This document shows, one piece after another, positions 12,688 to 33,131 of a DNA stretch of 60,264 bases. The position numbers were made by a program, and so were the translations under genes. The stretch is from assembly GCA_003567855.1 (NCBI GenBank), contig PWYM01000267.1:1-60264 (forward strand). Direction: 5' to 3'. The notes beneath the pieces were generated by a model. That model searched no databases. It saw nothing but the letters and a program-made list of their open reading frames with translations, and was not told where the DNA came from. The stretch comes from Gammaproteobacteria bacterium. Its GTDB lineage: Bacteria > Pseudomonadota > Gammaproteobacteria > Steroidobacterales > PWYM01. The stretch's first letter is position 1, and each line of letters starts with the position of its first letter.

Positions 12688-12689
12688 CC

Positions 12690-15059: not shown

Positions 15060-15074
15060 AGGTTTCTGCGCAGT

Positions 15075-15099
15075 CCCGCCCGGCATCATGCCGGGCGGG
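15075..15099. repeat. Perfect 12-bp inverted repeat (GC-rich hairpin)
   Basis: CCCGCCCGGCAT-C-ATGCCGGGCGGG between convergent genes. Confidence 0.7.
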
Positions 15100-15115
15100 C
15101 TAGTACGCGGTTGCC

Positions 15116-18049
15116 TCAGAACGAGACGTTCAGACCGAGCGTGTAGAACCGGCCCACAGCATCATAGACCTGCGGGAACGTGTTGCCACTGTTCACCGCC
15201 GATGTGCTGATGGTGTTGCCGATGTTCGGTGCATCACGATCGAACAGGTTGTTGACCGTGAGCGTCGCACGGACGTTGTCGTTGATGTTCCAGACGCCTG
15301 TCAGGTCGAAGTAGCTGTAGCTGCCGATGGAACGGGCGAAGAACTCCTCGGGAGCGGAGATGCTCCCCCCGTCGATCGCGCCCTGGATATCCGACGGCTC
15401 GGCGTTGAGCCCGTCGAGGTAGCGCCAGTTCAGCGACAGGTTGAAGTCCGCGACGTTCCAGGTCGTGCGCAGGTTGCCCTTCCACTTCGTGACCAGGCGG
15501 CTGCACGCGGTGCTGTAGAAGCCGAGGCAGTCACGGCGGGTCGAGTCGGGCGTCGGCTGCTGCTCGAAGTTCAGCACCCGGGTGACGTTGAGGTTGAAGT
15601 TCAGCCTCCCGAGCCCCGGATCGGCGAAGTCGAAGCCGTAAGTCGCCGCGAAGTCGACGCCGTCGGTGCGGAAGAAGCCGAGGTTGGACTGCGGTGTGAT
15701 CACGCCCAGCGCGTCGCCGGCACCGAGGTCGCCGGTAGTCGCGCTGCGATCGACCAGTGCGCAGGCTTCGTTGAATTCGCGGTTCGGATTGCGGCTCGAG
15801 CTGAAGCAGTCCTCGAGGATGTCACTGGTGCTCGGCGAGGACACCGCGTCGGTGATGCGGATGCGGTAGTAGTCGGCCGTGATCGTCAGGTTCTCGACCT
15901 GTCGCGGCTGCCACACACCACCGATCGTGAACGTGTTGCCGACCTCCGGGCCGAGTTCCGGGTTGCCGCCGGACGTGTTGTTGATCTGGCTGGCTGCCGG
16001 AGGTGCGATCTCGCCAACACGGCCTTCGGGAGCGCCCGTCTGCACGCAGAGGTTGGTCAGCGTACCCGCGACCCCAATGTCGGCCGGATTGATGTTGTCC
16101 AACTGGCACGGATCGGTGTCGAGGCTCGACAGGCCGGTCACGAACGGTGCGAACAGTTCATTGACGTTCGGTGCACGGGTCGCACGCTGGAGCATCGTCC
16201 GGAAACGCACGTCATCCACGGGCTCCCATGCCAGGCCGACCTTCCAGCTGCGGTAGTCGTCCGAATTCTCGCCGGAGTCGAAGTCCGTGTGCCGGATACC
16301 CGCTTCGAGTGTCAGCGAGTTCACGCCGGGTGCATCGGTGACCAGCGGCACCAGCGCCTCGGCGTAGATCTCGTTCAGCTTGAAAGAACCGGCACGGTCC
16401 GGCGTCGCGGCACCGGTGCCGAGCACCTCGCTGTCGATCTGCGACGCCGCGTCGGACGCGGTGAAGGCGCTGACACGGCGGTGCTCTACACCGAAAGCGA
16501 CACCGATCGGTGAACCCGAGGCAAACGGGCTGCGGAAATCGCCGAGATCACCGGAGACCGAGGCCTGGCCGATTTCCTGCTGAACTTCCTGGTTGAGGAT
16601 TGCGTTGAGATCGATGAAGTTCAGCATCTCCTGGGTGATGCCGCCGTCCTCGGTCCACAGGTTCAGCGGTACGCAGCCGCCGCTCGGGTCCACGCAGACG
16701 GCTTCGCCGGTCTCGGGGTCGGGCAGTACGTTCAGTGCCTGGCGCGCAGCCGACAGCGAACCCCATTGGATGCGGGTCTGCGACTGCTTGGCAAGGCCGT
16801 ATGACCACGACACGTCGTAGTCCCAGGTCGGGGTGATGTCGCCCCGGATGCCGAGGTTGTACTGGAACTGCTGGTTCTCGAAGATGTTGAGGCGCGGCCC
16901 GAACTCGGTGAACCGGCGCGGGAACTGGCCGGTGATTGTTTCCGGGTTGCCGGCGACACAGTCACCTATTGCGATGTCGTTCACTTCACAAAGCTGCTCG
17001 CGCGCGGGTTGCGGGATCAGCGGGTTGCCGATCGGGACTTCGAAGATGTTGAAGAACGTCGAACTCGGCGCGAGGTTCGTTTCGACCTCCGCATCGGTGA
17101 AGAAGAGCTCGCCGTATACCTCGGCAAACGGTGCGATCTCGTAGCGGCCGAGTGCGGTGAACTGCGTGCGCTCGAGCGGCGACTGGTAGAGGTTGAGCGG
17201 GTTGAAGTTGTACGGCGTGACCCCCGGTTCGAAAGCACCCGTTGCCGGGTTGAACTGCTGGGTGCCTTCAAGGGCGGTCGTCACCGTGGGCGTCGCCGCC
17301 GACGACCCGAACGCGGCGCCGGTGATGGAGTTGAGCGTCTGTTCACCGATGCCGCGATCGCCCTGCAGCACGGGGTCGGTATCGGTGACGCCGACGCTCA
17401 TGACCACGTTGCCGCGGCCGTCGGACGTGTTCGCGCCGAAGGTCAGGTCGGCGCGGAATCGGTCGCCGTCGTTCTCGTCGGAAACGCCGTAGGAGACGTT
17501 GAAGTCCACACCTTCAAAGTCCCGGCGCAGGATGAAGTTGAATACGCCGGTGACGGCGTCGGCGCCGTAGACGGCGGACGCGCCGCCGGTGATGAGGTCG
17601 ACGCGCTCGATCAGTGCGACGGGGATCGTGTCGGTATTGACGGTACCGCCGAGGCTGAATGGCGTCAGGCGACGGTCATTGACCAGCACCAGGTTCCTGT
17701 TGGAGCCGAGGCCGCGCAGGTCGATCAGCGAGCCGCCGATGGCGCCGTTGTTGGTGCCGGGGCCAAGGTTCGGAATCGCCGCCGGAAGCTGGCTTATGAA
17801 CTCCTCGACCGATGTCGGCTGACGAAGGTCGATTTCCACCTGGTCGACACTGGAAATCGGGCTGTTCGACACCAGGCCCGGGGAGCGGATGCGCGTACCG
17901 GTGACTACGACCTCGTCAATGGCCTGCGAGCCGGGGGGCTGTGTCTGTTGCTGCTGGGCGAAAGCTGCGGTGCCATGCAGCCCCGCACCTGCCACACCGG
18001 CCGTAAGAAGCGCGGTTCGGATCGCGCGGGTCAGTCTTGAATTGGGCAT
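15116..18049 (-). CDS. TonB-dependent receptor (large, Cys-pair-rich)
   Basis: Signal peptide, TonB box DEVVVTG, plug LRGLG..RNLVLVN and IERVD...GASAVYG, VNNLFD, terminal Phe; GGGAG RBS before ATG 18049. Confidence 0.93.
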   Translation of the reverse strand: MPNSRLTRAIRTALLTAGVAGAGLHGTAAFAQQQQTQPPGSQAIDEVVVTGTRIRSPGLVSNSPISSVDQVEIDLRQPTSVEEFISQLPAAIPNLGPGTNNGAIGGSLIDLRGLGSNRNLVLVNDRRLTPFSLGGTVNTDTIPVALIERVDLITGGASAVYGADAVTGVFNFILRRDFEGVDFNVSYGVSDENDGDRFRADLTFGANTSDGRGNVVMSVGVTDTDPVLQGDRGIGEQTLNSITGAAFGSSAATPTVTTALEGTQQFNPATGAFEPGVTPYNFNPLNLYQSPLERTQFTALGRYEIAPFAEVYGELFFTDAEVETNLAPSSTFFNIFEVPIGNPLIPQPAREQLCEVNDIAIGDCVAGNPETITGQFPRRFTEFGPRLNIFENQQFQYNLGIRGDITPTWDYDVSWSYGLAKQSQTRIQWGSLSAARQALNVLPDPETGEAVCVDPSGGCVPLNLWTEDGGITQEMLNFIDLNAILNQEVQQEIGQASVSGDLGDFRSPFASGSPIGVAFGVEHRRVSAFTASDAASQIDSEVLGTGAATPDRAGSFKLNEIYAEALVPLVTDAPGVNSLTLEAGIRHTDFDSGENSDDYRSWKVGLAWEPVDDVRFRTMLQRATRAPNVNELFAPFVTGLSSLDTDPCQLDNINPADIGVAGTLTNLCVQTGAPEGRVGEIAPPAASQINNTSGGNPELGPEVGNTFTIGGVWQPRQVENLTITADYYRIRITDAVSSPSTSDILEDCFSSSRNPNREFNEACALVDRSATTGDLGAGDALGVITPQSNLGFFRTDGVDFAATYGFDFADPGLGRLNFNLNVTRVLNFEQQPTPDSTRRDCLGFYSTACSRLVTKWKGNLRTTWNVADFNLSLNWRYLDGLNAEPSDIQGAIDGGSISAPEEFFARSIGSYSYFDLTGVWNINDNVRATLTVNNLFDRDAPNIGNTISTSAVNSGNTFPQVYDAVGRFYTLGLNVSF

Positions 18050-18548
18050 AACGTTGAAACTCCCTGCTGGGTAAGTTGCCACTGCTCAGGATTTGTCGCG
18101 TACAGGTTGTTCCGGACCCGGAATCGGTCGGATTCGGTCGCGGCTGATATCATGTGTTGTTGTAGAGCCACAGCTAGGTCATTTCCACCGATTCTGATGT
18201 CACAGAACAACCGTCGCGGTAAAAGATAGCTAAGAATTAATTACTTGGGAAGTGGTGGCGAACATACGAGTGTGGTTGTCCGGACCGTGTTCGCAACGCA
18301 TTTGACGTATTGAGTTGATTATCCGAAGTTTATGCATAGGGCGTGTCTTAGAAACCACAGCGTGCAGCGCAAACGAACGCTCCGACACCGGAGTCGTCAC
18401 GCGCAAGCAGCGCCGGGCGCTGATTCGCCCGGCCGAGGCGTGATTTCTCGGCCGGACCCGCCCCGGCATTCACGAGGCCGCGGCCCGGCTGGCATGCGCG
18501 CGAGCTTCCTGCTAGCTTTCCCGCTCGTCATCGCTGTCGGAGCCTGAC

Positions 18549-19541
18549 ATGCCGAATCGTCGGGCACACGGCCTGCCAGTGCCCCTCTCCCACGTTGCCG
18601 TCACCCAGTCGGTCGATCGCGCCCTTGAGATCCTCGGCGACCGCTGGACGACGCTGACGGTGCTCGGCGCTTTCGTGGGCTGTCGGCGCTTCGATCACTG
18701 GCGTGAACGACTTGGCATTTCCCGCAGCGTGCTGGCCAACCGGCTGCGACGCCTTCTCACGGTAGGCATCCTGCTCCGCGAGCCCATCGAGCCGGGCGCC
18801 CGCCGACACGGCTACCGGCTGACCCCGATGGGCCTCGATCTGCATGGCTGGGCGCTGGCCATACGCCACTGGGAGATGTCATGGACTTCCGTCGCTGACG
18901 ACTATCCGCTGTTTCTGCGCCACCGCGTCTGCGGGTCGGCCTTCGAGCCCGAATTCGTCTGCGCGGCCTGTGATGAGCGCGTCGATGCTCCGGATCAGAT
19001 CCAGGTGGCCAATTCGGGCGGCGGAGTGCGGCGCGCGGTGTCGCCGGTTGCCGGTGCGCGGCAGCGGCGATCGACGATCACCCGCGATACCGCCCAGGGC
19101 AGCTTCGGCTACCTCTTCGGCGAGTGCGTGGAAATCGTCGCCGATCGCTGGTCCTTCCTGGTCATCGCCGCGGCGTTTGCCGGTGTCACGCGCTTTCAGG
19201 CGCTCGAGGGCGAGCTCGGCATCGCCAGCAACATCCTCAGCGACAGGCTTCGCAGGCTCGAGGAACTCGGCGTGCTCGAACGCCAGCGCTACCAGGCGCA
19301 TCCCGCCCGCTACGAGTATTGCCTGACCGCATCGGGGCGGGACCTCTACCCGATGCTGCTGATGCTGTCCAACTGGGGAGATCGCTGGCTGTGGGGGCGG
19401 GGCGGGCCATGGCACAGCGTCATCCATCGTGGTTGCGGCCATCCCCTGGAGCTGGTCACGCGGTGCAGCGCCTGTGCCGGGCGACTGCGTCCGCAGGACG
19501 TGCGTCTCGAGCACGCCGGTATCCCCATCTACGGTGGGTGA
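18549..19541 (+). CDS. Tandem HxlR-family winged-HTH transcriptional regulator
   Basis: Two copies of DRW....RF.....LGI....L..RL..L...G.L....Y.LT..G.DL, each followed by H..CG...C..C. Confidence 0.88.
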   Translation: MPNRRAHGLPVPLSHVAVTQSVDRALEILGDRWTTLTVLGAFVGCRRFDHWRERLGISRSVLANRLRRLLTVGILLREPIEPGARRHGYRLTPMGLDLHGWALAIRHWEMSWTSVADDYPLFLRHRVCGSAFEPEFVCAACDERVDAPDQIQVANSGGGVRRAVSPVAGARQRRSTITRDTAQGSFGYLFGECVEIVADRWSFLVIAAAFAGVTRFQALEGELGIASNILSDRLRRLEELGVLERQRYQAHPARYEYCLTASGRDLYPMLLMLSNWGDRWLWGRGGPWHSVIHRGCGHPLELVTRCSACAGRLRPQDVRLEHAGIPIYGG

Positions 19542-19551
19542 GCACGGTCAC

Positions 19552-19598
19552 TTTACGCCACCCCTCTGGCGTGCCTAGAATGGTTTCAAAGTGCAAGT
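19552..19598 (+). promoter_or_regulatory. Putative sigma70 promoter plus operator for the oxygenase operon
   Basis: TTTACG-N18-TAGAAT followed directly by TGGTTTCAAAGTGCAAGT, a motif repeated at 25048. Confidence 0.5.
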
Positions 19599-19619
19599 AA
19601 GTTGCGATGCGGGGTAGCC

Positions 19620-21101
19620 ATGAGTGCAGTCACGCTGAGAAATCTTCCCGAACATGACGGCGCACTGCCTCCCGATGCGCCCGAGTGGATCCGGGACATC
19701 GACAACCCGTACCTCCACGGCGTGTACGCGCCGACGACCCGCGAGGTGAGCGCAAGCGGGCTGGAGGTGACCGGCCGTCTGCCACACGATCTGCACGGGC
19801 TCTACGTGCGAAACGGTCCGAACCCCGTGCACGCGCCGCCCCACCGCCATCACTGGTTCGACGGTGATGCGTGGCTTGCGGCCATCCGCTTCGAGCGGGG
19901 AGAGGCCTCGTTCCAGAGTCGCTGGGTGCACACGAAGGCGTTCGAAATGGAACGCGAGGCCGGGCATGCGATCTGGCCCGGCGTGCTGGGTCCGTACGAT
20001 TTCACGCTGCCCATCGGTCCCATCAAGGACACGGCCAACACCGACATCACCTGGTTCCGGGGGCGGCTCCTGGCATTGTGGTACGACGCCGGTACGCCCT
20101 ACGCGGTCGACCCGCTCACGCTGGACACGCTGGGCCCGGAAGACTTCGATGGACAGCTCGACCAGCGGCTTTCGGCCCACTCCAAGCCCGATGAGCGCAC
20201 CGGTGAACTGCTGTTCTTCAACTACAGCCATTTCGAGCCGTGGCTCGGGTTCGGCGTGATCGATGCTGCCGGGCGCATGGTGCATCGCACCCGCGTCGAG
20301 CTGCCCGGCCCGCGGCTGCCACATGACATCGGTTTCACGGAACGGTACGTGATCCTGCACGACCTGCCGTTCTTCCACGACGTCGAGCTGCTGCGCGACA
20401 AGGGCAAGCGCATCGCGACCTTCCGCGAGGACATGCCCTCGCGCTTTGGTGTGCTGCCGCGTGATGCGGACGGCAGCGAGGTGCGCTGGTTCGAAGCGCA
20501 GGCGGGCTACGTGCTGCACGTGATCAACGCCTGGGAAGAGGGCGACGAAATCGTCATGGACGGCTTCACGTCGACGAACCCGCTGCCGCGTCCCGATCCT
20601 GAAGACGGGTCGCTCAAGGCGATGCTCGCCTATCTCCGGCTGGAGGCTTCGATGCACAGGTGGCGTTTCAACCTGGGCACCGGCGAGACGCGCGAGCACC
20701 CGCTCGATGACACCAACGCCGAATTCCCGATCATCAACAATACGCGCGCGGGATTGCCGACGCGTTACTCATGGAGCCAGGTGATACCGCCTGCGCGCAC
20801 GCTGACCTTTTCCGGCCTGATGAAATTCGACTCGGTCACCGGCCGCCGCCAGCTGTTCGATTATGGTCCCGGCGTCTACGGCAGCGAGGCCGCCTTCGCG
20901 CCCAGGCCGGGCGCGGTGGACGAGGATGACGGTTACGTCACGACCTTCGTCACGGACACCGCCGACTGGAGTTCCTGGTGCCTCGTCTTCGATGCCCGCG
21001 ACATCGCCGCAGGTCCGCTGGCGCGGGTGAGGATTCCACAGCGACTGCCTGCCGGGTTCCACGCCACGTGGGTGGATGGCGCAAGGCTCGACAGACGGTA
21101 G
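19620..21101 (+). CDS. Carotenoid cleavage oxygenase / lignostilbene dioxygenase (RPE65) family protein
   Basis: G.YVRNGPNP, HWFDGD, NT; four Fe His (SAHSK, PHDIG, LHVINAWE, GFHATW); EFP and GSEAAF; EDDGY. Confidence 0.92.
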   Translation: MSAVTLRNLPEHDGALPPDAPEWIRDIDNPYLHGVYAPTTREVSASGLEVTGRLPHDLHGLYVRNGPNPVHAPPHRHHWFDGDAWLAAIRFERGEASFQSRWVHTKAFEMEREAGHAIWPGVLGPYDFTLPIGPIKDTANTDITWFRGRLLALWYDAGTPYAVDPLTLDTLGPEDFDGQLDQRLSAHSKPDERTGELLFFNYSHFEPWLGFGVIDAAGRMVHRTRVELPGPRLPHDIGFTERYVILHDLPFFHDVELLRDKGKRIATFREDMPSRFGVLPRDADGSEVRWFEAQAGYVLHVINAWEEGDEIVMDGFTSTNPLPRPDPEDGSLKAMLAYLRLEASMHRWRFNLGTGETREHPLDDTNAEFPIINNTRAGLPTRYSWSQVIPPARTLTFSGLMKFDSVTGRRQLFDYGPGVYGSEAAFAPRPGAVDEDDGYVTTFVTDTADWSSWCLVFDARDIAAGPLARVRIPQRLPAGFHATWVDGARLDRR

Positions 21102-21190
21102 ACGTGAGGCCCGGGGACGGCCGGCCCGGGGTGCAGACTGAAAGGGGGGAGTCGCGCGTGGTGGTCTGATGGGCCGCCCGCGCCTGACAC

Positions 21191-22537
21191 ATGGACGTCA
21201 ACTACACAGCAGACCGCCCGTGGCCACGTCCCCGCTATGCGTGGTACGTGGTTTTCATCCTGGTCCTCGCGTACACGAATTCGTTCGTGGACCGCCAGAT
21301 CATCGCGCTGCTGGTCGGCCCCATCCGCGCCGATCTCGGGATATCGGATACCCAGATCAGCCTCCTGATGGGTTTTTCGTTCGCGGTGTTTTACTGCCTG
21401 ATGGGGCTGCCGATCGCGCGGTTGGCCGATTCGGGCAACCGTCGCAACATCATCGCCATCGGCATGCTGTTCTGGAGTTTCATGACTATTGCGTGCGGTC
21501 TCGCGCGCAATTACTGGCAACTGTTCGCCGCGCGAGTCGGCGTCGGCGTCGGGGAGGCCGCGCTGTCGCCACCGGCTTACTCGATGCTCACAGACTATTT
21601 CCCCAAGGAGCGCCTGGGGCGCGCGATCAGCGTGTATTCGACGGGCGTCTACATCGGCGCGGGACTGGCCTACGTGCTCGGCGGGTTCGTGATCGGGCTC
21701 GTCGAGGCCGCCGATCCGGTCTCGTTGCCCATGGTCGGTGAGCTTTACCCGTGGCAGCTCGCGTTCCTCTACGTGGGGCTGCCGGGCATCCTGCTCGTGA
21801 TCGTGATGTGGCTCACGGTGCGCGAACCGTTTCGCCAGGGGGTCGGCGTCTCGCAGAAGGCGGTGCCGTTCCGTGACGTCGGGGCCTATCTGCGGTTGCA
21901 CCGCGCGACGCTGACCTGTCACTTCCTCGGGCTCGCGATCATGGGCATGGTCACGATCGCGTTCGTGTCATGGATACCGGAGTACTTCGTGCGCCTGCAC
22001 GGGTGGGCCGCCGCCGATATCGGCCTGGCCTTCGGCCTGGCGCTGATGATCTTCGGCACCGCGGGCGTGTACGCAGGCGGCTGGCTGGCCGACATCCTGA
22101 CGCGCCGCGGGCATCGTGATTCTGCGCTGCGCGCGATCATGGTGGGCTATGCGATGCAGATCCCGCTGGGCCTCGCCGTGGTCCTTGCGCCGAACGGGAC
22201 CGTCGCGGTGATCCTGCTGCTGCCGTTTACGTTTTTCCTCAGCTTTCACCAGGGGCTGACGTTTGCGGCCCTGCAGCTGATCTGTCCCAACCGGTTGCGC
22301 GCGCAGCTCAGCGCGCTTTTCATGTTCGTCGCGAACCTCATCGCACTGGGTGCGGGCCCCACGGTCGCGGCGCTGCTCACCGATTTCGTCTATCGTGACC
22401 CGCAGGCGCTGGGCCTGTCGCTGGCGACCATGGTGGCCGTGCTGATCCCAGTCGGTCTCGTGATCCTGCGGCTGGGACTCGCGCCGTTCCGCGCCAGTGT
22501 CGCGCATGTCGAGGCGGCGGAGACCGCCGGCGCATGA
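21191..22537 (+). CDS. MFS transporter (spinster-like)
   Basis: VDRQII, RLADSGNRR, ARVGVGVGEA motifs; 12-TM-like hydrophobicity. Confidence 0.9.
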   Translation: MDVNYTADRPWPRPRYAWYVVFILVLAYTNSFVDRQIIALLVGPIRADLGISDTQISLLMGFSFAVFYCLMGLPIARLADSGNRRNIIAIGMLFWSFMTIACGLARNYWQLFAARVGVGVGEAALSPPAYSMLTDYFPKERLGRAISVYSTGVYIGAGLAYVLGGFVIGLVEAADPVSLPMVGELYPWQLAFLYVGLPGILLVIVMWLTVREPFRQGVGVSQKAVPFRDVGAYLRLHRATLTCHFLGLAIMGMVTIAFVSWIPEYFVRLHGWAAADIGLAFGLALMIFGTAGVYAGGWLADILTRRGHRDSALRAIMVGYAMQIPLGLAVVLAPNGTVAVILLLPFTFFLSFHQGLTFAALQLICPNRLRAQLSALFMFVANLIALGAGPTVAALLTDFVYRDPQALGLSLATMVAVLIPVGLVILRLGLAPFRASVAHVEAAETAGA

Positions 22538-23481
22538 AACGCATCGTCGCGATCCTCGGCTTCTATGTCCGGCTGATGCCAAGCTTCAGCGCGCTGGGCT
22601 ATCTTGCGCGGCGGCTCACGTGGGGACGGATGCGCGCCGATTTTCACGGGCAGCGATGGGTCGTGACCGGCGGCTCGGACGGCATCGGGCGGGCTATCGT
22701 GCGCGCCGCCGCGCTTGCCGGCGCCGAAGTGATCGCGGTCGCGCGGGCGTCGGAACGTCTCGAGCGCGTCGTCCACGGACTGCCGGCCGACGCGGCGGCG
22801 CGTATCACGACGCGTGCGGCGAATCTGTCGCTGATCCGGGAGACGGCCACGCTGGCGGACAGCCTGGCGACAGCGCCCGGATCGATAGACGTGCTGGTCA
22901 ACAACGCCGGCATCCTGCTGGCTGCACCCGAACCCACCGACGAGGGCCTGGAAGCATCGTTCACGGTCAACCTGCTGAGCCACTACCAGCTGACCGAAGC
23001 GCTGATCGGCGCCGGCGTCATTGGCGCAAACGGGGTCGTCGTGAACATGTCGTCGGGCGGCATGTACAACGTCCCTCTGAACATCAAGGGCCTGCTGCGC
23101 ACCGACCCGGACCGCTATTCGGGCAAGATCGTCTATGCGTGTCACAAGCGTGCGCAGGTCGCGTTGACGGACTACTGGAACGCGCGATACGGCGACAGAG
23201 GCATACAGTTCCACGTGATGCACCCCGGTTGGGTCAGAACCGCCGGCGTGCGCCGCTCGATGCCGCTGTTTGCGAAACTGCAGGCGCCGGTGCTGCGCAC
23301 ACCGCGCCAGGGGGGCGACACGGCGCTCTGGCTCTGCCATGCGAGGCCGCAGCCGCAGCCGGACCGCATCTGGTTCGATCGCCGTCCGCGCGGGGTTCAC
23401 CTCATGGCTGCGACTCGCAACGCGCGCAGTACCCCGGAGGCGCTTGCGGACTACCTTCAATCGATGCTGGAGCGGACATGA
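22534..23481 (+). CDS. SDR family oxidoreductase (DHRS12-like)
   Basis: TGGSDGIG, NNAG, MSSGGMY, YACHK, MHPGWV. Confidence 0.88.
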   Translation: MKRIVAILGFYVRLMPSFSALGYLARRLTWGRMRADFHGQRWVVTGGSDGIGRAIVRAAALAGAEVIAVARASERLERVVHGLPADAAARITTRAANLSLIRETATLADSLATAPGSIDVLVNNAGILLAAPEPTDEGLEASFTVNLLSHYQLTEALIGAGVIGANGVVVNMSSGGMYNVPLNIKGLLRTDPDRYSGKIVYACHKRAQVALTDYWNARYGDRGIQFHVMHPGWVRTAGVRRSMPLFAKLQAPVLRTPRQGGDTALWLCHARPQPQPDRIWFDRRPRGVHLMAATRNARSTPEALADYLQSMLERT

Positions 23482-25004
23482 GACTGCCTGATCTGCTCGA
23501 CTACCACGCCCGCGCGGAACCGATGCGGCTGTTTGCCGCAGACGATCGCACCGAGATCGGTTACGGCGACGCGGCCGCGCACGTCGCGCGGCTCGCGGCC
23601 GGTATGCGCGCCGGCGGCCTGCAGCGCGGCGACCGGGTTGCGCTGCTCGCGCGCAACCGCGCCGAATACGTGCTGTGGCAGTTTGCGTGTGCCCGCGCGG
23701 GTACGTGCCTGGTGCTGTTGAATTTCCACCTTGCCGAGAAAGAACTCGAGTACATCCTCGGTGACTGCACGCCGCGCTGGCTGGTCACCGAGGCGCGTTT
23801 TCAGGCCATGGCCGAACGGCTGAGCCGTGGCCTGAACTCGGTCGAGCGGGTGGTGATGCTCGATGTCGACGGCCATCCCGAGAGCTGGCTCGCGATCGGG
23901 CAGGGCGATCCGGTTCCGGATGCGACAGAGGTGTCCCTCGAGGATGACCTCTACATCATGTACACGAGCGGCACCACCGGTCGGCCCAAAGGCGCGGTAC
24001 ACACGCAGCGCTCCCTGATGACAACGGTCACGCAGCTTGGCATTACGTGGGATATGAATGCCGGCGAGCGCCAGCTCGTCATCGCGCCGCTGTTCCATGC
24101 TGCGGCGTCGATCATGGCGCTGACCGGCATCGTCCGGGGCGGCAGTCTCATCATCCATGAGCGCTTCGACCCGGAGGCGGTGGTGGCAGCGCTGCACGAA
24201 GCGCGCATTGACCGCACCGCGATGGTGCCTTCGATGATACACGCGTGTCTCGAGCATGCGTCCCCGGCGCTGCAGAAGACGCCGCCACCGCTGCGGTCGG
24301 TCATCTACGGGGCTTCGGCGATCGAGACCGGTCTGCTCGAGCGCGCGATGCGCACGTTCGGCTGCGGTTTCATCCAGGGCTTCGGACAGACCGAGTCGAA
24401 TACGCTGACGACGCTGACCGAGGCCGATCACCGCCGGGCACTGGACGGGCACGAGCACCTGCTGAGGTCCGCCGGGCGCGCGGTGCCCGGCACGGCGCTG
24501 CGCATCGTCGATGCCGAAGGGCGCGACCTGCCGCCGGGCGAGGTCGGCGAGATCGTCGCCCGCGGCGAACAGTCGATGCGCGGCTACTGGCGCCGTGACG
24601 AGGCGACCGCCGCGACCGTCGTAGACGGCTGGCTGCATACCGGTGATGCGGGTTGTCTCGATGACGAAGGCTACCTGTACATCCGTGACCGGCTGACCGA
24701 CATGATCATCAGCGGCGGTGAGAACGTCTATCCGCGCGAGGTCGAGAACGTACTCGCCGAACATCCGCAGGTGCTCGAAGTCGCGGTCATCGGCATGCCC
24801 GATCCGCGCTGGGGGGAGGCGGTGACCGCGGTGGTCGTGCCGAGGTCCGGCGAGGTGCCTGTGCTGGATGATCTGCAGGCTTTCGCCGCCGGCCAGCTCG
24901 CGCGCTACAAGTTGCCCCGCCGTCTGGAGATCGTCACGGCCCTGCCGCGCAACGCGACCGGCAAGGTGCTCAAGCGTGAGTTGCGGATCACCTGCGCGAA
25001 CTGA
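23478..25004 (+). CDS. Long-chain acyl-CoA synthetase / AMP-binding enzyme
   Basis: YTSGTTGRPKG, PLFH, GFGQTE, LHTGD, ISGGENVYP, RNATGKVLK; ATGA overlap with SDR. Confidence 0.92.
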   Translation: MRLPDLLDYHARAEPMRLFAADDRTEIGYGDAAAHVARLAAGMRAGGLQRGDRVALLARNRAEYVLWQFACARAGTCLVLLNFHLAEKELEYILGDCTPRWLVTEARFQAMAERLSRGLNSVERVVMLDVDGHPESWLAIGQGDPVPDATEVSLEDDLYIMYTSGTTGRPKGAVHTQRSLMTTVTQLGITWDMNAGERQLVIAPLFHAAASIMALTGIVRGGSLIIHERFDPEAVVAALHEARIDRTAMVPSMIHACLEHASPALQKTPPPLRSVIYGASAIETGLLERAMRTFGCGFIQGFGQTESNTLTTLTEADHRRALDGHEHLLRSAGRAVPGTALRIVDAEGRDLPPGEVGEIVARGEQSMRGYWRRDEATAATVVDGWLHTGDAGCLDDEGYLYIRDRLTDMIISGGENVYPREVENVLAEHPQVLEVAVIGMPDPRWGEAVTAVVVPRSGEVPVLDDLQAFAAGQLARYKLPRRLEIVTALPRNATGKVLKRELRITCAN

Positions 25005-25047
25005 CTCAACGGCTTGCCGGTTCATTCTGCGCGTGATAGCTTCGCGT

Positions 25048-25065
25048 TGGTTCTATTAAGCAAGT
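25048..25065 (+). promoter_or_regulatory. Putative operator, second copy
   Basis: TGGTTCTATTAAGCAAGT, 12/18 identical to the site at 19581-19598, upstream of the second operon. Confidence 0.45.
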
Positions 25066-25191
25066 GTCATGGTCACACCGTGGCCGGTCGGCATCCGGGT
25101 CGGGGGAGTCGGGTTGCCGGTTGTCGGATCTCGTCCGGCATGCGCGAGACCTCCCCCGCTGCAATACCCAATCGGCACAGAGGCTCGCGAC

Positions 25192-27471
25192 ATGAATCAG
25201 CATTACCGTCCGGCAACCCGGCTCACCGCGCTCGCCGCCGCGATGTTCGGCGCAGGTGCAATCTCGCTGGCGGCGTCACCCGACGCGGCCGCCCAGCCCG
25301 CTGAATCCGGTGCGGCCAGCGCCGGCCGGCTCGACGAGGTTGTCGTCACGGCTCGACGCCGCGAGGAAAGTCTCCAGCAGGTCCCCATCGCGGTGTCGGC
25401 GTTCGACGGCGAGCAGCTGAGCCGCGCGGGCATGAATGACCTGTCATCGCTGACCGGACGAGTCCCGAGCTTCACCTTCCAGGAGGCCCAGTCCAACAAG
25501 CAGGACCTGTTCCTTCGCGGCATCGGTACGTCGCGTCTCGATGCCGCGGTCGTCGACCCGTCGATCGGCATGTTCCAGGACGAGGTCTACATCGGGCGCA
25601 GAGGTACCGCACAGCCACCGCTGTTCGACCTGGCGCGCGTCGAGGTGCTGCGCGGGCCGCAGGGTACGCTGTGGGGGCGCAACGTCGTCGGTGGCGCTAT
25701 CGGCATGGTCACCGCCCGCCCCGAGTTCGATCGCTCCGGCGGCATCCAGGTACGCGCGGGCGTGTCGGACGGGCACTTTCGCTCAGCCATCTATGGCGCT
25801 GAAGGCTTCGTCACCGGCGGCATTACCGACCGTATCGCCGGGCGTGCCGCGGTGTACATGAACAGCCACGGAGGCTATTCGCGCAACGTACGTCCCGATC
25901 CCACGCCGACCTCGTCGGGCAACCAGCGCCTCGCCAACCAGGACATGCTGGCGCTGCGCGGTTCGCTGCTGTTCGATATCACGCAGGATATCGAGTTCAA
26001 CCTCGTGGCCGACTTCAGTCGGGACTCTTCGGACGGCGCCTGCCGGCACGCGGTCCAGAACCCGAACACCGCGCCGGGCGCGGCCGCCGGCAGCGGACTG
26101 CTGCCCGAAAACGTCCGTGACTGCGACACGCCGTACCGGCAGTTTACCGACCGCGATACCGCTGGACTCACCGGGCGCCTGGAGTGGAACCTGGACCAGA
26201 TCTCCCTGACCTGGCTGTCCGCCCTCCGCCATGGTGACTCGGTCGATTTCATGTCCCAGTCCGGAACGTCCTCGCCACCGTCGCTTACCGACAGCCTGGT
26301 CTCGTTGGACGAAAACTATCGTGGCCTGACCCAGGAGTTGCGCGTCTCCTCGGATTACGACACCCGGTTCAACTACACGGCGGGGCTCTACTACCTGCGC
26401 GAGCGCACCAACTCGAGTCACACCAACCTCGCGACCTCCTTCGCCAACACCGGACCAGGCTCGCTGGGCGATATTCTCGATGGTGAGTGGGAATACACCC
26501 AGCGTGGCGTCTCCTACAATCAGGGCGTGTTCGCCGAGCTGTACTTCGACCTTTCCGATACGGTGCAGCTGACGCTTGGCGGGCGTTACACGCGTGACCG
26601 CAAGACTTTCTACAATGCGGCGGAGTGTCTTGACTTCGGTCCTCCCGGCTCGATCCTGTGCGTCGCGCCGCTGGGTGTCGCCGAGGACGAGTTCAGTGTT
26701 CGCGTCGACGACACCTGGAACGAATTCACGCCCAAAGTGGCGCTCGACTGGCAGGTGACCGACGAGGCGCTGCTGTACGTGAGCGCCACGCGCGGCTTCA
26801 AGGGCGGCGGCTGGCAGAGCAAGCCGGAGAACGAGGTCGCGGCGCGTGCCGGATACGACCCGGAAACCGCCTGGAACTACGAGGTCGGCGCCAAGTCCGA
26901 CCTGCTTGATGGCCGCCTGCGGCTGAACGTCGCGGCGTTCTACACCGACTTCAGCGATCTGCAGGTCGAAGTGCTCGACGACGAACTGCTCGTGCTGGTC
27001 GTCGACAACGCGGCCGAAGCTACCATCCGCGGCCTGGAAGTCGAAGCCAACTGGTTCGCCACCGAATACCTCTCGCTCTGGCTGAGCGGCTCGCTGCTCG
27101 ACACCGAGTACGAGGACTTCGGGGCCAACACCGGAAATACGCTGCAGTTCACCTCCGAGGAAATGGTCAGCGCCGGATTCGACTGGGAGTTCCCGCTCGC
27201 CAACGGCGGCGTCATCGACTGGCGGATGGAATACCGCTGGCAGGGCACCAAGTACTGGAATCCGGAGAACACGCTCAGCGAGAGCCCGATCGGTCTGGTC
27301 GACGGACGCCTCGCGTACCGGCCCGACCAGGGCAACTGGGAAGTCGCATTATGGGGGCGCAATCTCACCGACACGACCTACCGCGTGGGCGTGATCCCGT
27401 TCATCGGCGACGTGTTCTCACGTTACGCGGCACCGCGCAGCTTTGGCGTGCAGTTCAACGCGAGCTTCTGA
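25192..27471 (+). CDS. TonB-dependent receptor
   Basis: Signal peptide, DEVVVTARRREESLQQVP, EVLRGPQGTLWG, PE...NYEVG.K, GRNL.D, terminal Phe. Confidence 0.93.
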   Translation: MNQHYRPATRLTALAAAMFGAGAISLAASPDAAAQPAESGAASAGRLDEVVVTARRREESLQQVPIAVSAFDGEQLSRAGMNDLSSLTGRVPSFTFQEAQSNKQDLFLRGIGTSRLDAAVVDPSIGMFQDEVYIGRRGTAQPPLFDLARVEVLRGPQGTLWGRNVVGGAIGMVTARPEFDRSGGIQVRAGVSDGHFRSAIYGAEGFVTGGITDRIAGRAAVYMNSHGGYSRNVRPDPTPTSSGNQRLANQDMLALRGSLLFDITQDIEFNLVADFSRDSSDGACRHAVQNPNTAPGAAAGSGLLPENVRDCDTPYRQFTDRDTAGLTGRLEWNLDQISLTWLSALRHGDSVDFMSQSGTSSPPSLTDSLVSLDENYRGLTQELRVSSDYDTRFNYTAGLYYLRERTNSSHTNLATSFANTGPGSLGDILDGEWEYTQRGVSYNQGVFAELYFDLSDTVQLTLGGRYTRDRKTFYNAAECLDFGPPGSILCVAPLGVAEDEFSVRVDDTWNEFTPKVALDWQVTDEALLYVSATRGFKGGGWQSKPENEVAARAGYDPETAWNYEVGAKSDLLDGRLRLNVAAFYTDFSDLQVEVLDDELLVLVVDNAAEATIRGLEVEANWFATEYLSLWLSGSLLDTEYEDFGANTGNTLQFTSEEMVSAGFDWEFPLANGGVIDWRMEYRWQGTKYWNPENTLSESPIGLVDGRLAYRPDQGNWEVALWGRNLTDTTYRVGVIPFIGDVFSRYAAPRSFGVQFNASF

Positions 27472-27472
27472 C

Positions 27473-28003
27473 GTGGCGGCGCGTGACCCCGAACTGCAGG
27501 CGTTGCTCGACAAGCAGGCGATCCACGAACTGCTCGTACGCTATACGCGCGGTATAGACCGCGCCGACGTCGAGCTGCTGCGAAGCTGCTACCACGAGGA
27601 TGCCACCGAAGACCATGCAGGCGTGTTCGTCGGGCGCGCGATGGACTATATCGCGCATATCGAGCACGCGCTGCCACGCGCACGCGTGATGACCCACGCG
27701 GTGTCCAACGTCCTGATCGAGCTCGAAGGCGATGTTGCATGGGCCGAGGCCTATGTCACCACCTATGCACGCATGAAGAAGGGGGAGCAGCGCTTTGACA
27801 CGATGACGCTGGCCCGCACCTTCGACCGCGTGGAACGCCGTGATGGCGTGTGGCGCATTGCCGCGCGACGCATGAGTCTCGAGTGGAACCATGACCTTGA
27901 GATCGCCGAGGGCTGGGGCCATGGCCTCATCGTACCGCCCGACGCCACGCCCGTGCGCGGTGCGAAGAAGCCGGACGACATGATCTACCAGCGCGAACAA
28001 TGA
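27473..28003 (+). CDS. SnoaL/NTF2-like protein (LinA/BaiE/scytalone dehydratase-like)
   Basis: L.DKQAI.EL..RY.RG.DR.D, THAVSN..I...GD.A, RRDG.WRI pattern. Confidence 0.82.
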   Translation: MAARDPELQALLDKQAIHELLVRYTRGIDRADVELLRSCYHEDATEDHAGVFVGRAMDYIAHIEHALPRARVMTHAVSNVLIELEGDVAWAEAYVTTYARMKKGEQRFDTMTLARTFDRVERRDGVWRIAARRMSLEWNHDLEIAEGWGHGLIVPPDATPVRGAKKPDDMIYQREQ

Positions 28004-28770
28004 GCAGGCGAGGCGTGGAGGGTGCGGTCGCGCTGGTGACCGGCGCGAATCGCGGCATAGGCGCGGCGTTCGTCGACGCGCTGCTCGCCGCAGGAGTTCT
28101 GCGCGTGCACGCCGGTGCACGTGATCCGGATACGCTTGCCGGCTTGCTGGAACGCCATGGCGGCCGAGTGGTGGCGCACCGGTTGGACGTGACGCGGACT
28201 GCGGACGTCGCGGCCGTTGCGGCGGCAGCTGCCGATACGACGGTGCTGGTCAACAACGCCGGCGTGTTCCGCAACCAGCGACTGTTCGACACCTCGGATC
28301 CGGAGGCGGCCCGCGAGGAGATGGAAGTCAACTATTTCGGCGTGCTTGCCATGTGTCGTGCATTCTCGCCGATCCTTGCCGACAACGGCGGCGGTGCCAT
28401 CGTCAACGTGCTCTCGGCTGCGGCGCTGGCGAACGTGCCGGTCATGGGCGGCTACAGTCCGTCGAAGGCGGCAGCCCGTTCGCTCACGGCAGCACTGCGT
28501 GCCGAGCTCGGACACCTCGGCATCACCGCACACGCGTTGATCGTCGGCTCGGTGGACACGCGCATGGCAGCGCACGTGCGCGGCGACAAGGCTGATCCGG
28601 CCGACATCGCGCGCGCCGGGATTGCGGCGATACGCCATGACCTGCCGGAAGTCGATACCGACCCGATGGCGGTGGCGGTGCGCGCCGCCATCGCCAGGGA
28701 TCCGCGCGAGTTCGAACGCCAGATGACGGCCATGCTGTCGTCACCAACACTACACACGGGGCGTGGCTGA
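28000..28770 (+). CDS. SDR family oxidoreductase
   Basis: TGANRGIG, NNAG, NVLS, YSPSK. Confidence 0.9.
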   Translation: MSRRGVEGAVALVTGANRGIGAAFVDALLAAGVLRVHAGARDPDTLAGLLERHGGRVVAHRLDVTRTADVAAVAAAAADTTVLVNNAGVFRNQRLFDTSDPEAAREEMEVNYFGVLAMCRAFSPILADNGGGAIVNVLSAAALANVPVMGGYSPSKAAARSLTAALRAELGHLGITAHALIVGSVDTRMAAHVRGDKADPADIARAGIAAIRHDLPEVDTDPMAVAVRAAIARDPREFERQMTAMLSSPTLHTGRG

Positions 28771-29605
28771 CTCCGGTCCGCTGCCCAACGACGGAGTTCT
28801 GCAGATGGACTGGATGGAGTTCCTGACCCTCGCCGGCGCCAATTTCGTGCTGATCATGGTGCTGATGATCGCGTTATGGGGTGTGTCGGTCGCGATACGC
28901 GACTCGAGCATTGCCGATATCTACTGGGGCACCGGGCTGATCATCGCCGCCTGGTTCACATGGGCGATCTCCGATGGCGTCGAAGCGCGGCGCCTACTGG
29001 TGCTCGCCCTGGTCACGGCGTGGGGGCTCCGGCTCAGTCTTTACCTGTTGTGGCGCAACTGGGGCGCGGAGGACGCGCGTTACGCCCGCTTGAGACGCCA
29101 CATCGAGGAACAGGGTGGCAACTACGCGCTGCACAGTCTCAAGCACGTGTACCTGCTGCAGGGCTTTTTCATGTGGGTGATCTCGCTGGTGCTGATCTTC
29201 TCGCTGTCTTTGGATGCACCGCCCACGCTGGGTGTGCTCGCGTGGACGGGTGTCGCGCTGTGGAGTGTCGGCATGTTTTTTGAGACGGTCGGTGACTGGC
29301 AGCTCGCACGTTTCCGTGCCGACCCCGCGAATGCCGGCAAGGTCATGGATCGGGGGCTGTGGCGCTACACGCGTCACCCCAACTATTTCGGCGAAGCCTG
29401 CGTGTGGAGCGGATTCTTCCTGATCGCACTCGAACATCCGGCGGGCATCGTCACCGCGGTCAGCCTTCTCACGATTCTCTACGCGCTCATCGGCCCGACC
29501 GGAAAAGGGCTCCTCGAGCGTCGTATGAGCAAGAAACGCCCCGATTTCGAAGCCTACGTCCGGCGCACCAGCGGGTTTTTCCCGTTGCCGCCGAAGCGGG
29601 ACTGA
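28763..29605 (+). CDS. DUF1295 membrane protein (steroid 5-alpha-reductase/ICMT-like fold)
   Basis: SIAD..WG, WG.RL, ED.RY, GLW..TRHPNYFGE, Y...TS.FFP. Start may be 28806. Confidence 0.88.
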   Translation: MADSGPLPNDGVLQMDWMEFLTLAGANFVLIMVLMIALWGVSVAIRDSSIADIYWGTGLIIAAWFTWAISDGVEARRLLVLALVTAWGLRLSLYLLWRNWGAEDARYARLRRHIEEQGGNYALHSLKHVYLLQGFFMWVISLVLIFSLSLDAPPTLGVLAWTGVALWSVGMFFETVGDWQLARFRADPANAGKVMDRGLWRYTRHPNYFGEACVWSGFFLIALEHPAGIVTAVSLLTILYALIGPTGKGLLERRMSKKRPDFEAYVRRTSGFFPLPPKRD

Positions 29606-29737
29606 GAGGTCTCCCGTCCACCTGCCGCGGCTGGCCACTACGCGACACATGCGCTAACGTCTCGGTCGGCGAATGACTGCCACGGTCGCTCGGAGCGGCC
29701 TGGAGGTCCCGCCTGACATGCAGTCACGGGAGCGAGA

Positions 29738-30631
29738 ATGCGTCGACTCAGGCACAGCCACCCGAACGGCACGGTTTGGTGTGCAGCGCTGGTAACCGCT
29801 TCGGTTATGTGGAGTCCGGCCGAGGCGCAGGCCGAGCCGGCCAACGGCTACCACCGTCCCGACCACGACACCACGGTCTATGCCGGCACTGCGCTCGTCA
29901 GCCGCTACGTCGCGCGCGGCATCGTGTTCGCCGACGGCGCGTCGTTTCAGCCATGGGTGGAATTCGACGTACCTGTGCTCCAGGAGCGTTTCGGCGACAG
30001 CCTCGCGCCAAGATTGCGCTTTGGCAGCTGGAACAGCGTCAACCTCGGTGATTCGGACACCGGTCGACCCCAGGGTGGACTGGAGGAGAACCTGCGGCAC
30101 TGGTACGAAACCGACGTCTACGCCGGTGTCTCGCTCTCACTGACCGAGCGCATGTCCGGCACGTTGACCTACTTCGTATACAGCTCGCCTTCGGACAGTT
30201 TCAGCACCAGCACCGACCTCGAGGCGCGCATCAATTACGCTGATGCCGATTCCTGGCCCTGGCCGGGCTTTGCTCTCAACCCGGCGCTGCGTGTGACGCG
30301 GGAGTTGCGTCGACCCACCGGCTCGGGGCGCTGGTATTACCAGCCGTCGCTCACGCCGAGTCTCACGTTCGGCAACCGGCCGTACACGCTGCAGGTGCCG
30401 CTGGTGGCGGGCTTCTCCCCGGATGACTGGTACGTGGATGCCCAGGGCAATACGATCAGGAGGGGATTTTTCCAGACGGGCCTCAGCCTCGGCATACCGT
30501 TCGAAGTCTGGTCGATCGCGTGGAGCGCGACCGCAGCCGTAGACGCGTACCTGCCTGACAGCGATGCCCAGAACGGCTTCGACGACAGCCTCGAACTCGT
30601 CTGGCGGATCGGTCTGAGTACCGCCTTCTGA
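29738..30631 (+). CDS. Putative outer-membrane beta-barrel protein (TorF/Gcw_chp-like)
   Basis: Signal peptide, S.YV.RG..F....S.QP and E.D.Y.G motifs, alternating amphipathic strands, terminal Phe. Confidence 0.65.
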   Translation: MRRLRHSHPNGTVWCAALVTASVMWSPAEAQAEPANGYHRPDHDTTVYAGTALVSRYVARGIVFADGASFQPWVEFDVPVLQERFGDSLAPRLRFGSWNSVNLGDSDTGRPQGGLEENLRHWYETDVYAGVSLSLTERMSGTLTYFVYSSPSDSFSTSTDLEARINYADADSWPWPGFALNPALRVTRELRRPTGSGRWYYQPSLTPSLTFGNRPYTLQVPLVAGFSPDDWYVDAQGNTIRRGFFQTGLSLGIPFEVWSIAWSATAAVDAYLPDSDAQNGFDDSLELVWRIGLSTAF

Positions 30632-30678
30632 GCGGCAGCTGCAGTGGTCCACATGCACGGGAATTATTGGAGTCCGGG

Positions 30679-32781: not shown

Positions 32782-32783
32782 CC

Positions 32784-33131
32784 ATGATGCCCGCGTCAAG
32801 GCGCCTGCGCGTTTGTGGACTTGTGCTGGGGATGGCGCTCACGGGCGGCTGCGAGCGCGAACCGCCGGCGCCGGTCGCCGTCGAGCTCGAGCTGTTGGTC
32901 GCTCAGCAGCAGAATTTCCGCGGCCAGCTCGTGCAGACTTCGGGCACCGTGCGGGGCTTCGATGATCCGCGCCACTTCTGGATCGAGGACGACGCACTCA
33001 ACCGCGTGGAACTGGTGCCGGCCGATTTCGTCTCGGAATTCGTCGACAGGGAAGTGACCGTGATCGGGCGTTTCACGGTGCCCGACGGCGAACAGGGCCG
33101 GCGTATCGACGTGCGCACGATCAGGCCCTGA
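32784..33131 (+). CDS. Hypothetical lipoprotein (possible OB-fold)
   Basis: Lipobox-like TGGC; G..V...G.V and V.V.G.F beta pattern; 2 bp after BCCT stop. Confidence 0.6.
   Translation: MMPASRRLRVCGLVLGMALTGGCEREPPAPVAVELELLVAQQQNFRGQLVQTSGTVRGFDDPRHFWIEDDALNRVELVPADFVSEFVDREVTVIGRFTVPDGEQGRRIDVRTIRP

Follow-up and report, generated by a model that had tools for sequence, protein, structure and literature searches.

What would a bacterium do with an enzyme of the carotenoid oxygenase family whose gene lies among those of transporters, reductases and an acyl-coenzyme A (CoA) ligase? The question is raised by nine genes at positions 18549 to 29605 of contig PWYM01000267.1 of assembly GCA_003567855.1, the host genome being called G000 hereafter. 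We analysed this contig as a window of 60,264 nt, to whose positions the coordinates below refer. The nine open reading frames (ORFs) of the initial annotation are all present on the + strand, and their Pfam results agree with the labels first given to them: a tandem-HxlR regulator, a carotenoid-cleavage-oxygenase (CCO) family enzyme, a major facilitator superfamily (MFS) transporter, a short-chain dehydrogenase/reductase (SDR1), an acyl-CoA ligase, a TonB-dependent receptor, a SnoaL protein, a second short-chain dehydrogenase/reductase (SDR2) and a DUF1295 protein. We favour, with a probability of about one half, an accessory locus that would import a polyene resembling an apocarotenoid (of the apocarotenoid or carotenoid-acid type), cleave it, reduce the carbonyl or enone products and activate them with CoA.

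The oxygenase and its active site

The oxygenase gene (19602..21101, + strand) encodes a protein that matches the Pfam family RPE65 (PF03055) over model positions 1-469 of 469 (E 1.3e-127, 427.1 bits, cut-off 27). Since the enzyme is 493 aa long in the protein collection, the ATG at 19620 is its likely start. Its closest solved relative in a PDB search is the carotenoid 9,10-dioxygenase 9luz (E 4e-74, 253 bits, residues 37-495), followed by maize VP14 (202 bits), the Pseudomonas lignostilbene enzyme 5v2d (188), the Synechocystis apocarotenoid oxygenase (180), NOV1 (178) and LsdA (177). The iron ligands His193, His241, His306 and His487 are present and align with histidines in 9luz, 3npe and 5v2d; when the 177 members of the clade are aligned, these four are invariant in 176-177, as are two of the three second-shell glutamates. 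Hydropathy gave neither a signal peptide nor a transmembrane segment.

The same superfamily includes enzymes that cleave stilbenes, and the locus might accordingly belong to the catabolism of phenylpropenoids or stilbene acids, by a lignostilbene, resveratrol or isoeugenol route in which the ligase would be a hydroxycinnamate-CoA synthetase. Lignostilbene dioxygenases (LSDs) match the oxygenase at E ~1e-51 to 1e-54, and the top solved relative of the ligase is the feruloyl-CoA synthetase 8wev (E 1.4e-90). Pairs of TonB receptor and MFS transporter are also what sphingomonads use to import lignin-derived acids. The active site nevertheless argues for another substrate. In the available portion of a study of LSD4, stilbene cleavage involves Tyr-101 and Lys-134, which hydrogen-bond the 4-hydroxyl of the substrate (PMC8191317), and an excerpt on PbLSD gives Tyr103 and Lys135 as the equivalent residues (PMC6097328). 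In a pairwise alignment to 5v2d, whose numbering was counted by hand to allow for a 20-residue tag offset in the chain, Val128 stands at the LSD tyrosine position and Trp160 at the LSD lysine position. Across the 177 clade members the lysine position is occupied by Trp (136), Phe (40) or Tyr (1) and by Lys in none, while the tyrosine position, aliphatic in 175/177, holds Leu (74), Ile (50), Val (46), Met (5), Tyr (1) or Thr (1). The NCBIfam equivalog models for LSD, NF053778 and NF053780, are likewise missed, with 254.6 bits against a cut-off of 800 and 221.3 against 650. With the Lys/Tyr pair replaced and both models out of reach, the oxygenase is not of the lignostilbene type, and the window carries no genes for aromatic ring cleavage or for the conversion of vanillin or vanillate. 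The initial annotation had named identity with lignostilbene or resveratrol catabolism as the alternative to a new pathway; the active-site residues contradict it, and we regard such a route as a very faint prospect.

The top-scoring NCBIfam model is the equivalog for 8'-apo-carotenoid 13,14-cleaving dioxygenase, NF052295, whose cut-off is also far off (260.9 bits versus 675). As judged by sequence comparison, the oxygenase is the kind of superfamily member that stands nearest to carotenoid-type enzymes and outside every characterised subfamily, with carotenoid or apocarotenoid cleavage as its putative activity. At least 4299 relatives at E <= 1e-30 occur among the 8000 candidates scored in the protein collection; the nearest non-identical ones, 57-60% identical, are all named just 'carotenoid oxygenase family protein', and we found no characterised member for the bacterial clade of this enzyme.

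Gene neighbourhoods of related oxygenases

If the enzyme were part of a pathway, which genes would keep it company elsewhere? We compared 160 loci of related oxygenases, made up of the 80 closest from species genomes (up to 53% identity) and the 80 closest from metagenomes (up to 52%), a set in which records of the window's own genome may be left out. They were searched with the proteins of the window and with neighbour proteins from five loci (Pfam annotation of 70 neighbours), and a neighbour was counted at 50% query coverage or more and above a family-specific identity threshold of 28-40%; the flanks averaged 12.4 kb, many loci being short.

The commonest neighbours are an SCP2-type thiolase (82 of the 160 loci), a ligase of ~570 aa (64), a thiolase (55), an NMO-family flavoenzyme (46) and a tandem-HxlR protein (39), and the last of these pairings is shared with the window, where the tandem-HxlR gene lies directly upstream of the oxygenase gene. 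Rarer are DUF1295 (14), SDR1 (6), SnoaL (5) and the TonB receptor (4), and the MFS transporter, SDR2 and a ligase of the window type occur once each. As a rough yardstick, a two-copy gene in a 3.5-Mb genome would be expected at about 1 of 160 loci with a 12.4-kb flank. Because the loci were picked by similarity to the CCO and some of the genomes are related, these counts are not independent, a first point that tells against the import and cleavage of a polyene. The expectation that the gene set recurs in other genomes therefore holds for the tandem-HxlR regulator, DUF1295, SDR1, SnoaL and the TonB receptor, and hardly at all for the ligase, the MFS transporter and SDR2.

The carriers belong to Actinomycetota, Bacillota, Chloroflexota, Bacteroidota and Pseudomonadota, with examples in Amycolatopsis, Bacillus/Peribacillus, Chloroflexia, Saprospiraceae, myxobacteria and alpha-, beta- and gammaproteobacteria. 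Two loci stand out. A contig of a Lysobacterales metagenome-assembled genome (L043) unites seven of the nine window families, with identities of 56% for SDR2 (which adjoins DUF1295 there), 52% for the MFS transporter, 49% for SDR1, 46% for the oxygenase, 44% for DUF1295 and 35% for the regulator, its ligase being of a different kind. In Hyphobacterium sp. SN044 (L065), 12.5 kb hold a ligase, DUF1295, a CCO, SnoaL, SDR1, two thiolases, an NMO-family enzyme, a second CCO and a second ligase. Homologues of SDR1 at 43-49% identity lie in L043, L065 and a further CCO locus, L067. A FastTree phylogeny of 177 oxygenases places the window enzyme within a clade of 17 (support 0.874), where its closest neighbours, L001 and L002, both have DUF1295 and thiolases, and L002 has HxlR and NMO genes as well.

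In many loci (L043, L065, L067, L074, L075, L140 and others) two oxygenase paralogues stand side by side, and a 'type B' oxygenase clade (23 members, support 1.0) is the usual neighbour of DUF1295, SnoaL and SDR1. In the annotated loci, the core lacks genes for an acyl-CoA dehydrogenase and a hydratase, so that the downstream chemistry would not be ordinary beta-oxidation. By Pfam annotation the window has no ~570-aa ligase, SCP2-type thiolase, thiolase or NMO-family enzyme, and the conserved core is thus lacking there.

Is the block then one unit, or a mosaic of co-oriented accessory genes that share no substrate, the CCO and its regulator forming one part and the TonB receptor with the genes that follow it another? 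The ligase, the MFS transporter and SDR2, each a neighbour of a single CCO among the 160, suggest that part of the block may be a local mosaic, which weighs against a common pathway. In the receptor gene (25069..27471, + strand, Pfam Plug and TonB barrel) a signal-peptide-like stretch begins at Met42, which makes 25192 the probable start and leaves a likely gap of 187 bp after the ligase gene; G000 has other pairs of TonB receptor and ligase, on contigs C79, C122 and C69, and a synteny search across the genus recovered the receptor upstream of the block only. On the other side stands the packing of the genes. Within the block there are three 4-nt start/stop overlaps and one of 8 nt, and the three ATGA overlaps given by the initial annotation, at 22534, 23478 and 28000, can be read directly in the sequence. 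This translational coupling joins MFS, SDR1 and ligase on the one hand and SnoaL, SDR2 and DUF1295 on the other, and both halves (SDR1; SnoaL and DUF1295) adjoin CCOs elsewhere, in a single apparent operon in Hyphobacterium, while the Lysobacterales contig has the seven families together. We consider a mosaic improbable. The layout suggests that, behind the regulator's own gene, there are probably two transcription units, oxygenase-MFS-SDR1-ligase and receptor-SnoaL-SDR2-DUF1295.

A broader interpretation, possible though we would put it clearly below even odds, sees in the window one version of a system, widespread among bacteria and not yet described, by which carotenoid fragments are consumed. 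Such a system would use one to three CCD1-like oxygenases; DUF1295, an NTF2-like enzyme and SDRs would deal with the ring or enone end, the chain would be shortened by a CoA ligase, two thiolases and an NMO-family enzyme, and a new class of double-HxlR regulator would sense an apocarotenoid or its aldehyde through two His-Cys3 sites, TonB import and a Spinster-type transporter having been gained in the soda-lake host. In our view, the cross-phylum neighbourhood outweighs the block itself in importance, the substrate being a guess.

Regulator, partner genes and a possible route

How might the block be controlled? The regulator (18549..19541, + strand, 330 aa) contains two HxlR (PF01638) stretches (131.4 bits, cut-off 20.8), each winged-helix half being followed by an H-x2-C-x9-C-x2-C motif (H125/C128/C138/C141 and H293/C296/C306/C309), and both motifs are kept in 36-37 of 37 regulator homologues from many taxa. 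To judge from this pattern, they look like a metal or redox site lying outside the HxlR family model. The solved relatives are single-domain HxlR proteins, first PA1607 (2f2e, E 1.6e-17), then HxlR and YodB; in the ESM Atlas, double-HxlR proteins of 300-340 aa form several clusters, all without an assigned function, and a search of the literature, solved structures and the ESM Atlas found no characterised tandem-HxlR member. Its promoter presumably lies in the 466-bp intergenic region 18083..18548, where scans turned up neither a promoter nor an operator of significance and which separates the gene from that of a divergent 988-aa TonB receptor on the minus strand (15116-18082). Between regulator and oxygenase, a promoter-like site, TTTACG-18-TAGAAT (19552..19581, + strand, promoter scan), encloses the perfect palindrome ACGCCA-N6-TGGCGT (19555-19572), a weak candidate operator. 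Seven intergenic regions scanned for inverted repeats had none in common, and control of the cluster by the tandem-HxlR protein is presumed, from gene position only.

The MFS gene (21191..22537, + strand, Pfam MFS_1) was first labelled Spinster-like, and this agrees with its top solved relative, 6e8j (E 5e-53, 184 bits), which we take to be a bacterial Spinster homologue; D-galactonate transporters come next (about 1e-15, 60 bits), then human SPNS1/SPNS2 (9.1e-14 to 1e-10). The protein has about 10 hydrophobic segments by hydropathy. Spinster transporters carry lipids. SDR1 (22534..23481, + strand, Pfam adh_short), whose gene overlaps that of the MFS transporter by ATGA, is a classical short-chain dehydrogenase, extended at its N-terminus by a hydrophobic stretch. 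The label 'DHRS12-like' was not borne out for it, as it has only generic SDR matches: a structure search returned none at E 1e-15 and generic SDRs at 1e-8. SDR2 (28000..28770, + strand, adh_short, ATGA overlap with the SnoaL gene) falls in the NCBIfam subfamily PRK08264.1-4 (NF006118; 307.2 bits versus 279). Hydropathy found no signal peptide or membrane segment in SDR1, SDR2 or the SnoaL protein. The ligase (23478..25004, + strand, 508 aa, Pfam AMP-binding and AMP-binding_C, ATGA overlap with SDR1) scores just over the cut-off of NF004837, a subfamily of long-chain-fatty-acid ligases in NCBIfam (488.8 bits versus 476), and its nearness to a feruloyl-CoA synthetase suggests an alpha,beta-unsaturated acid as substrate.

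Two genes near the end of the block bring in a further explanation, the modification of an imported sterol or cyclic terpenoid, in which an SDR, the NTF2-like protein and DUF1295 would act like a 3-beta-hydroxysteroid dehydrogenase, a ketosteroid isomerase and a 5-alpha-reductase, with the oxygenase in another step. The SnoaL gene (27443..28003, + strand), whose TTG start is uncertain, encodes an NTF2-like protein with a SnoaL_4 match at E 8e-22 and Rv3472 as top solved relative (E 5.7e-6), a candidate isomerase, hydrolase or dehydratase, and the SnoaL/NTF2 fold includes ketosteroid isomerases. DUF1295 (28763..29605, + strand) matches PF06966 over model positions 1-235 of 235 (217.6 bits) and has four hydrophobic segments, no solved relative by sequence search, and a partial Steroid_dh match (41.8 bits, cut-off 22.6) at residues 161-231 and model positions 43-113 of 150. 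There are also sub-threshold matches of the ligase to the steroid-24-oyl-CoA synthetase and FadD3 family acyl-CoA ligase models. These steroid equivalogs, however, stay below their cut-offs (302.8/750 and 330.1/657), the window has no genes for steroid ring degradation, and the repeated adjacency of DUF1295, SnoaL and SDR1 to CCOs would be left unexplained. We hold a steroid function to be very improbable.

The chemistry proposed here for DUF1295 draws on the Steroid_dh match together with three reports, each available in part: the DUF1295-like UsgR of a fungus is an ene-reductase that reduces the C=C bond of an enone (PMC8597850), DUF1295 genes occur beside rhodopsin genes (bioRxiv 10.1101/2021.02.16.431466), and a DUF1295 gene of Chlamydomonas is induced by singlet oxygen (PMC4067076). 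By this analogy, the protein may be an NAD(P)H-dependent ene-reductase akin to steroid 5-alpha-reductase.

Could genes elsewhere in the host supply what the block lacks? The initial annotation had called the route complete, which does not stand, as the window is without an aldehyde dehydrogenase, a thiolase and an enoyl reductase. G000 (3.5 Mb, 302 contigs, 87.55% complete) carries on contig C264 (L099, about 4787-14287) a PaaN-type aldehyde dehydrogenase, a thiolase, a ~570-aa ligase (48% identical to the Amycolatopsis homologue) and an NMO-family enzyme. This set runs divergently from a second tandem-HxlR gene, whose product is 40% identical to that of the window, and a TonB receptor 35% identical to the window's comes next, with no oxygenase adjoining. 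The SCP2-type thiolase of G000 is on C197, and a second oxygenase, 43-44% identical to that of the window, stands alone beside purL on C285. G000 thus spreads over the window, C264, C285 and C197 an inventory like that of the Hyphobacterium locus, with an aldehyde dehydrogenase in addition.

From the gene content and coupling, the type of active site and the neighbourhoods we infer the following chemical steps, substrate and direction of transport for a polyene pathway. The TonB-dependent receptor would bring the compound across the outer membrane, and the Spinster-like transporter would take either the compound or a product through the inner membrane. In the cytoplasm, the iron oxygenase with its four histidines would split a conjugated C=C bond and so yield two carbonyl fragments, SDR1 and SDR2 would interconvert carbonyl and alcohol, the NTF2-like SnoaL protein could shift a double bond or open an epoxide, and membrane-bound DUF1295 would reduce the resulting enone or enal. 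The ligase would turn a carboxylate fragment into its CoA thioester, and the module on C264, with its aldehyde dehydrogenase, ~570-aa ligase, thiolase and NMO-family flavoenzyme, might carry the breakdown further. The tandem-HxlR protein, with its two invariant His-Cys3 motifs, would be the presumed sensor and repressor.

Downstream of DUF1295 lies orf297 (29738..30631, + strand, known by translation only), between the DUF1295 gene and a BCCT transporter gene; its membership in the cluster is uncertain. With a predicted signal peptide, a sequence rich in beta structure and Phe at its C-terminus, it may be a small outer-membrane barrel; it has no Pfam or NCBIfam match, and no homologue in the 160 CCO loci. 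At 13480-14967, a single ORF encodes both TPR repeats and, at its C-terminal end, a 2OG-Fe(II) oxygenase domain (2OG-FeII_Oxy_5, E 2.8e-21). Most of the other genes of the window have housekeeping functions (Mla, DnaX, RecR, PEP synthase), and there are AcrB-type efflux pumps as well.

Host, habitat and comparison with known systems

Would the polyene come from outside, or from the host itself? That the window has no genes for carotenoid synthesis or rhodopsin, as first noted, is true by Pfam annotation and does not extend to the whole genome. Contig C117 (L193, L196, L197) carries pufL and pufM, genes of the polyprenyl synthase (CrtE), phytoene synthase (CrtB) and phytoene desaturase (CrtI) families, a NifH/BchL-like gene and a gene for a Mg-chelatase subunit, and pufLM were found in 5/5 sister genomes searched. 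The pufL, pufM and crt genes make the host an anoxygenic phototroph and most likely a carotenoid producer. Neither rhodopsin (PF01036) nor Blh (PF15461) had a match in the 87.55% complete G000, but the control genomes were equally without one, so that this blank carries no weight.

The locus could accordingly serve internal carotenoid turnover or the control of photo-oxidative damage, in which the host's own, perhaps oxidised, carotenoids would be cleaved, the enals and enones detoxified by DUF1295 and the SDRs, electrophiles sensed by the HxlR protein and products exported by the MFS transporter. The puf and crt genes of the host and the presence of pufLM in all five sisters are in keeping with this, as is the singlet-oxygen response of the Chlamydomonas gene. 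Among the solved relatives of the regulator are HxlR-family proteins, YodB for one, that sense electrophiles. On contig C72 (L101: 2691-7909), moreover, G000 joins a TonB receptor and an MFS transporter 55% identical to that of the window to a ChrR-type cupin protein. A TonB receptor and a CoA ligase nevertheless suit import and catabolism better than detoxification. The window CCO was not found among the phototrophic sisters (6 genomes), and neither was its regulator type (5 genomes searched); these keep only the CCO of the C285 type and the module of the C264 type, and many carriers of the neighbourhood, such as Amycolatopsis and Bacillus, are non-phototrophic. We therefore judge internal turnover unlikely, yet a serious contender.

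Near-identical DNA of the block is present in metagenome runs from soda lake, salt lake and alkali sediment, none of the runs listed being of RNA, and carotenoids are abundant in soda and salt lakes. Of the sampled words, 0.72-0.98 are found in each of five runs, one of these runs perhaps being the source, and all 30 bins of 14500-33500 are covered by contigs from three further runs. Single metagenome contigs span the junction of upstream region, regulator and oxygenase and that of receptor, SnoaL and SDR2; such bridging contigs from other runs indicate that the order of the genes here did not arise through an error in one assembly. Metagenome 'joints' with sides of 21-23 letters were set aside as noise from other organisms or paralogues. 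Contig depth is about tenfold higher over the BCCT transporter gene (30350-32251), probably from similar genes of other organisms.

The genomes of the same genus show how far the block is shared. Two sister loci with an ortholog of the upstream receptor (64% amino acid identity) have entirely different flanking genes, and SDR1 homologues (51-59% identity) in five sister genomes have no other cluster gene within the 12-20 kb fetched. With synteny searches fruitless, the genus is too diverged for the boundaries of an insertion to be defined. Since the genus keeps the C264 type of regulator and another CCO, the core of the system is genus-wide, and the window block is an additional form of it at the level of the species.

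Against the uptake and cleavage of an exogenous polyene, several findings have to be set. The window itself has, by Pfam annotation, no aldehyde dehydrogenase, hydratase or thiolase, and its functional link to C264 is drawn from other genomes only. No ortholog of the window CCO occurs in six same-genus genomes, where the best CCO match in each is 42-43% identical, and the window type of regulator was found in none of the five sister genomes searched, each of which yielded one match only, at 57-60% identity to the copy on C264; the block is thus dispensable for the genus. A DNA search of seven genomes with 14000-33900 found no syntenic copy, the sole long match being the upstream receptor at 15116-18082 (65-72% identity). 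As the host makes carotenoids, internal turnover or a stress role is possible, and an exogenous substrate is not to be assumed. The likeness of the ligase to feruloyl-CoA synthetase, a resemblance in sequence, would fit a phenylpropenoid acid (cinnamate) as well as a polyenoic (apocarotenoic) one. Regulatory DNA gave no help: a promoter and terminator scan of 17900-33300 was at chance (2 promoter-like sites against 2.1 expected from shuffles, 9 terminator-like sites against 7.9), the palindrome occurs with two or fewer mismatches 5 times in the window against 6.18 expected, with no second good copy in the cluster, and a crude inverted-repeat search found no common operator in 40 regions, of which 39 precede tandem-HxlR genes and one precedes the window CCO.

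What would follow if the locus does serve carotenoid fragments? Carotenoids are made in very large amounts, and the consumption of carotenoids and their fragments by bacteria is essentially unknown. The locus and its relatives offer a concrete and testable gene set for such a pathway, with cultured carriers such as Hyphobacterium sp. SN044, Amycolatopsis ponsaeliensis RTGN1, Bacillus sp. FJAT-29814 and Parahaliea mediterranea DSM 21924, the first three of which have the set in a single locus. They would give first functional contexts to DUF1295, to the His-Cys3 tandem-HxlR regulators and to bacterial Spinster homologues. Were the broader interpretation true, the host could harvest the pigment debris of its neighbours or recycle its own; should the substrate differ, the neighbourhood would still mark a catabolic module that crosses phyla.

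How does this compare with systems already described? The initial annotation knew of no characterised pathway with this combination of genes, and a full-text literature search, gene tables in supplements being outside its scope, supports it: no paper was found that links a bacterial CCO to HxlR, NMO, thiolases, DUF1295, TonB receptors or a CoA pathway. The CCD1-like carotenoid 9,10-dioxygenase (9luz, 9m3e, 9m6z), VP14 (3npe) and the Synechocystis apocarotenoid oxygenase (2biw) share with the window enzyme the RPE65 fold, the four iron histidines and a residue other than Lys at the stilbene position. Unlike plant CCD1, the window enzyme is bacterial and sits in a catabolic-looking operon with transporters; plant CCD1, to our knowledge, has no comparable gene context. 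The lignostilbene and resveratrol systems (LsdA, LSD4 of Sphingobium SYK-6, NOV1, PbLSD 5v2d) belong to the same superfamily and use the cleavage of an olefin to two aldehydes as a catabolic entry step, whereas the enzyme studied here has no Tyr/Lys pair, keeps other gene partners and scores far below the LSD models.

Several bacterial CCOs, MtCCO (Rv0654), NosCCD, NACOX1, SaCCO and PpCCO, act on carotenoids or apocarotenoids, whether in vitro or in E. coli that makes carotenoids; in the available part of a review (PMC5133782), the oxygenases so far characterised from bacteria stand as enzymes to which no pathway is attached. Compared by description only, these five appear in the same portion as enzyme activities, with no mention of an uptake system, a regulator or a CoA follow-up. 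For DUF1295, the nearest parallel lies in the ene-reductases of the 5-alpha-reductase/PEMT superfamily, such as UsgR (PMC8597850, seen in excerpt): the window protein is polytopic in the membrane and matches Steroid_dh in part, and while UsgR has a known reaction, the literature found names no cofactor or substrate for bacterial DUF1295. Finally, HxlR (7bzd), YodB (5hs7) and PA1607 (2f2e) consist of one HxlR domain each, whereas the regulator of this locus fuses two, each with its own invariant His-Cys3 motif.

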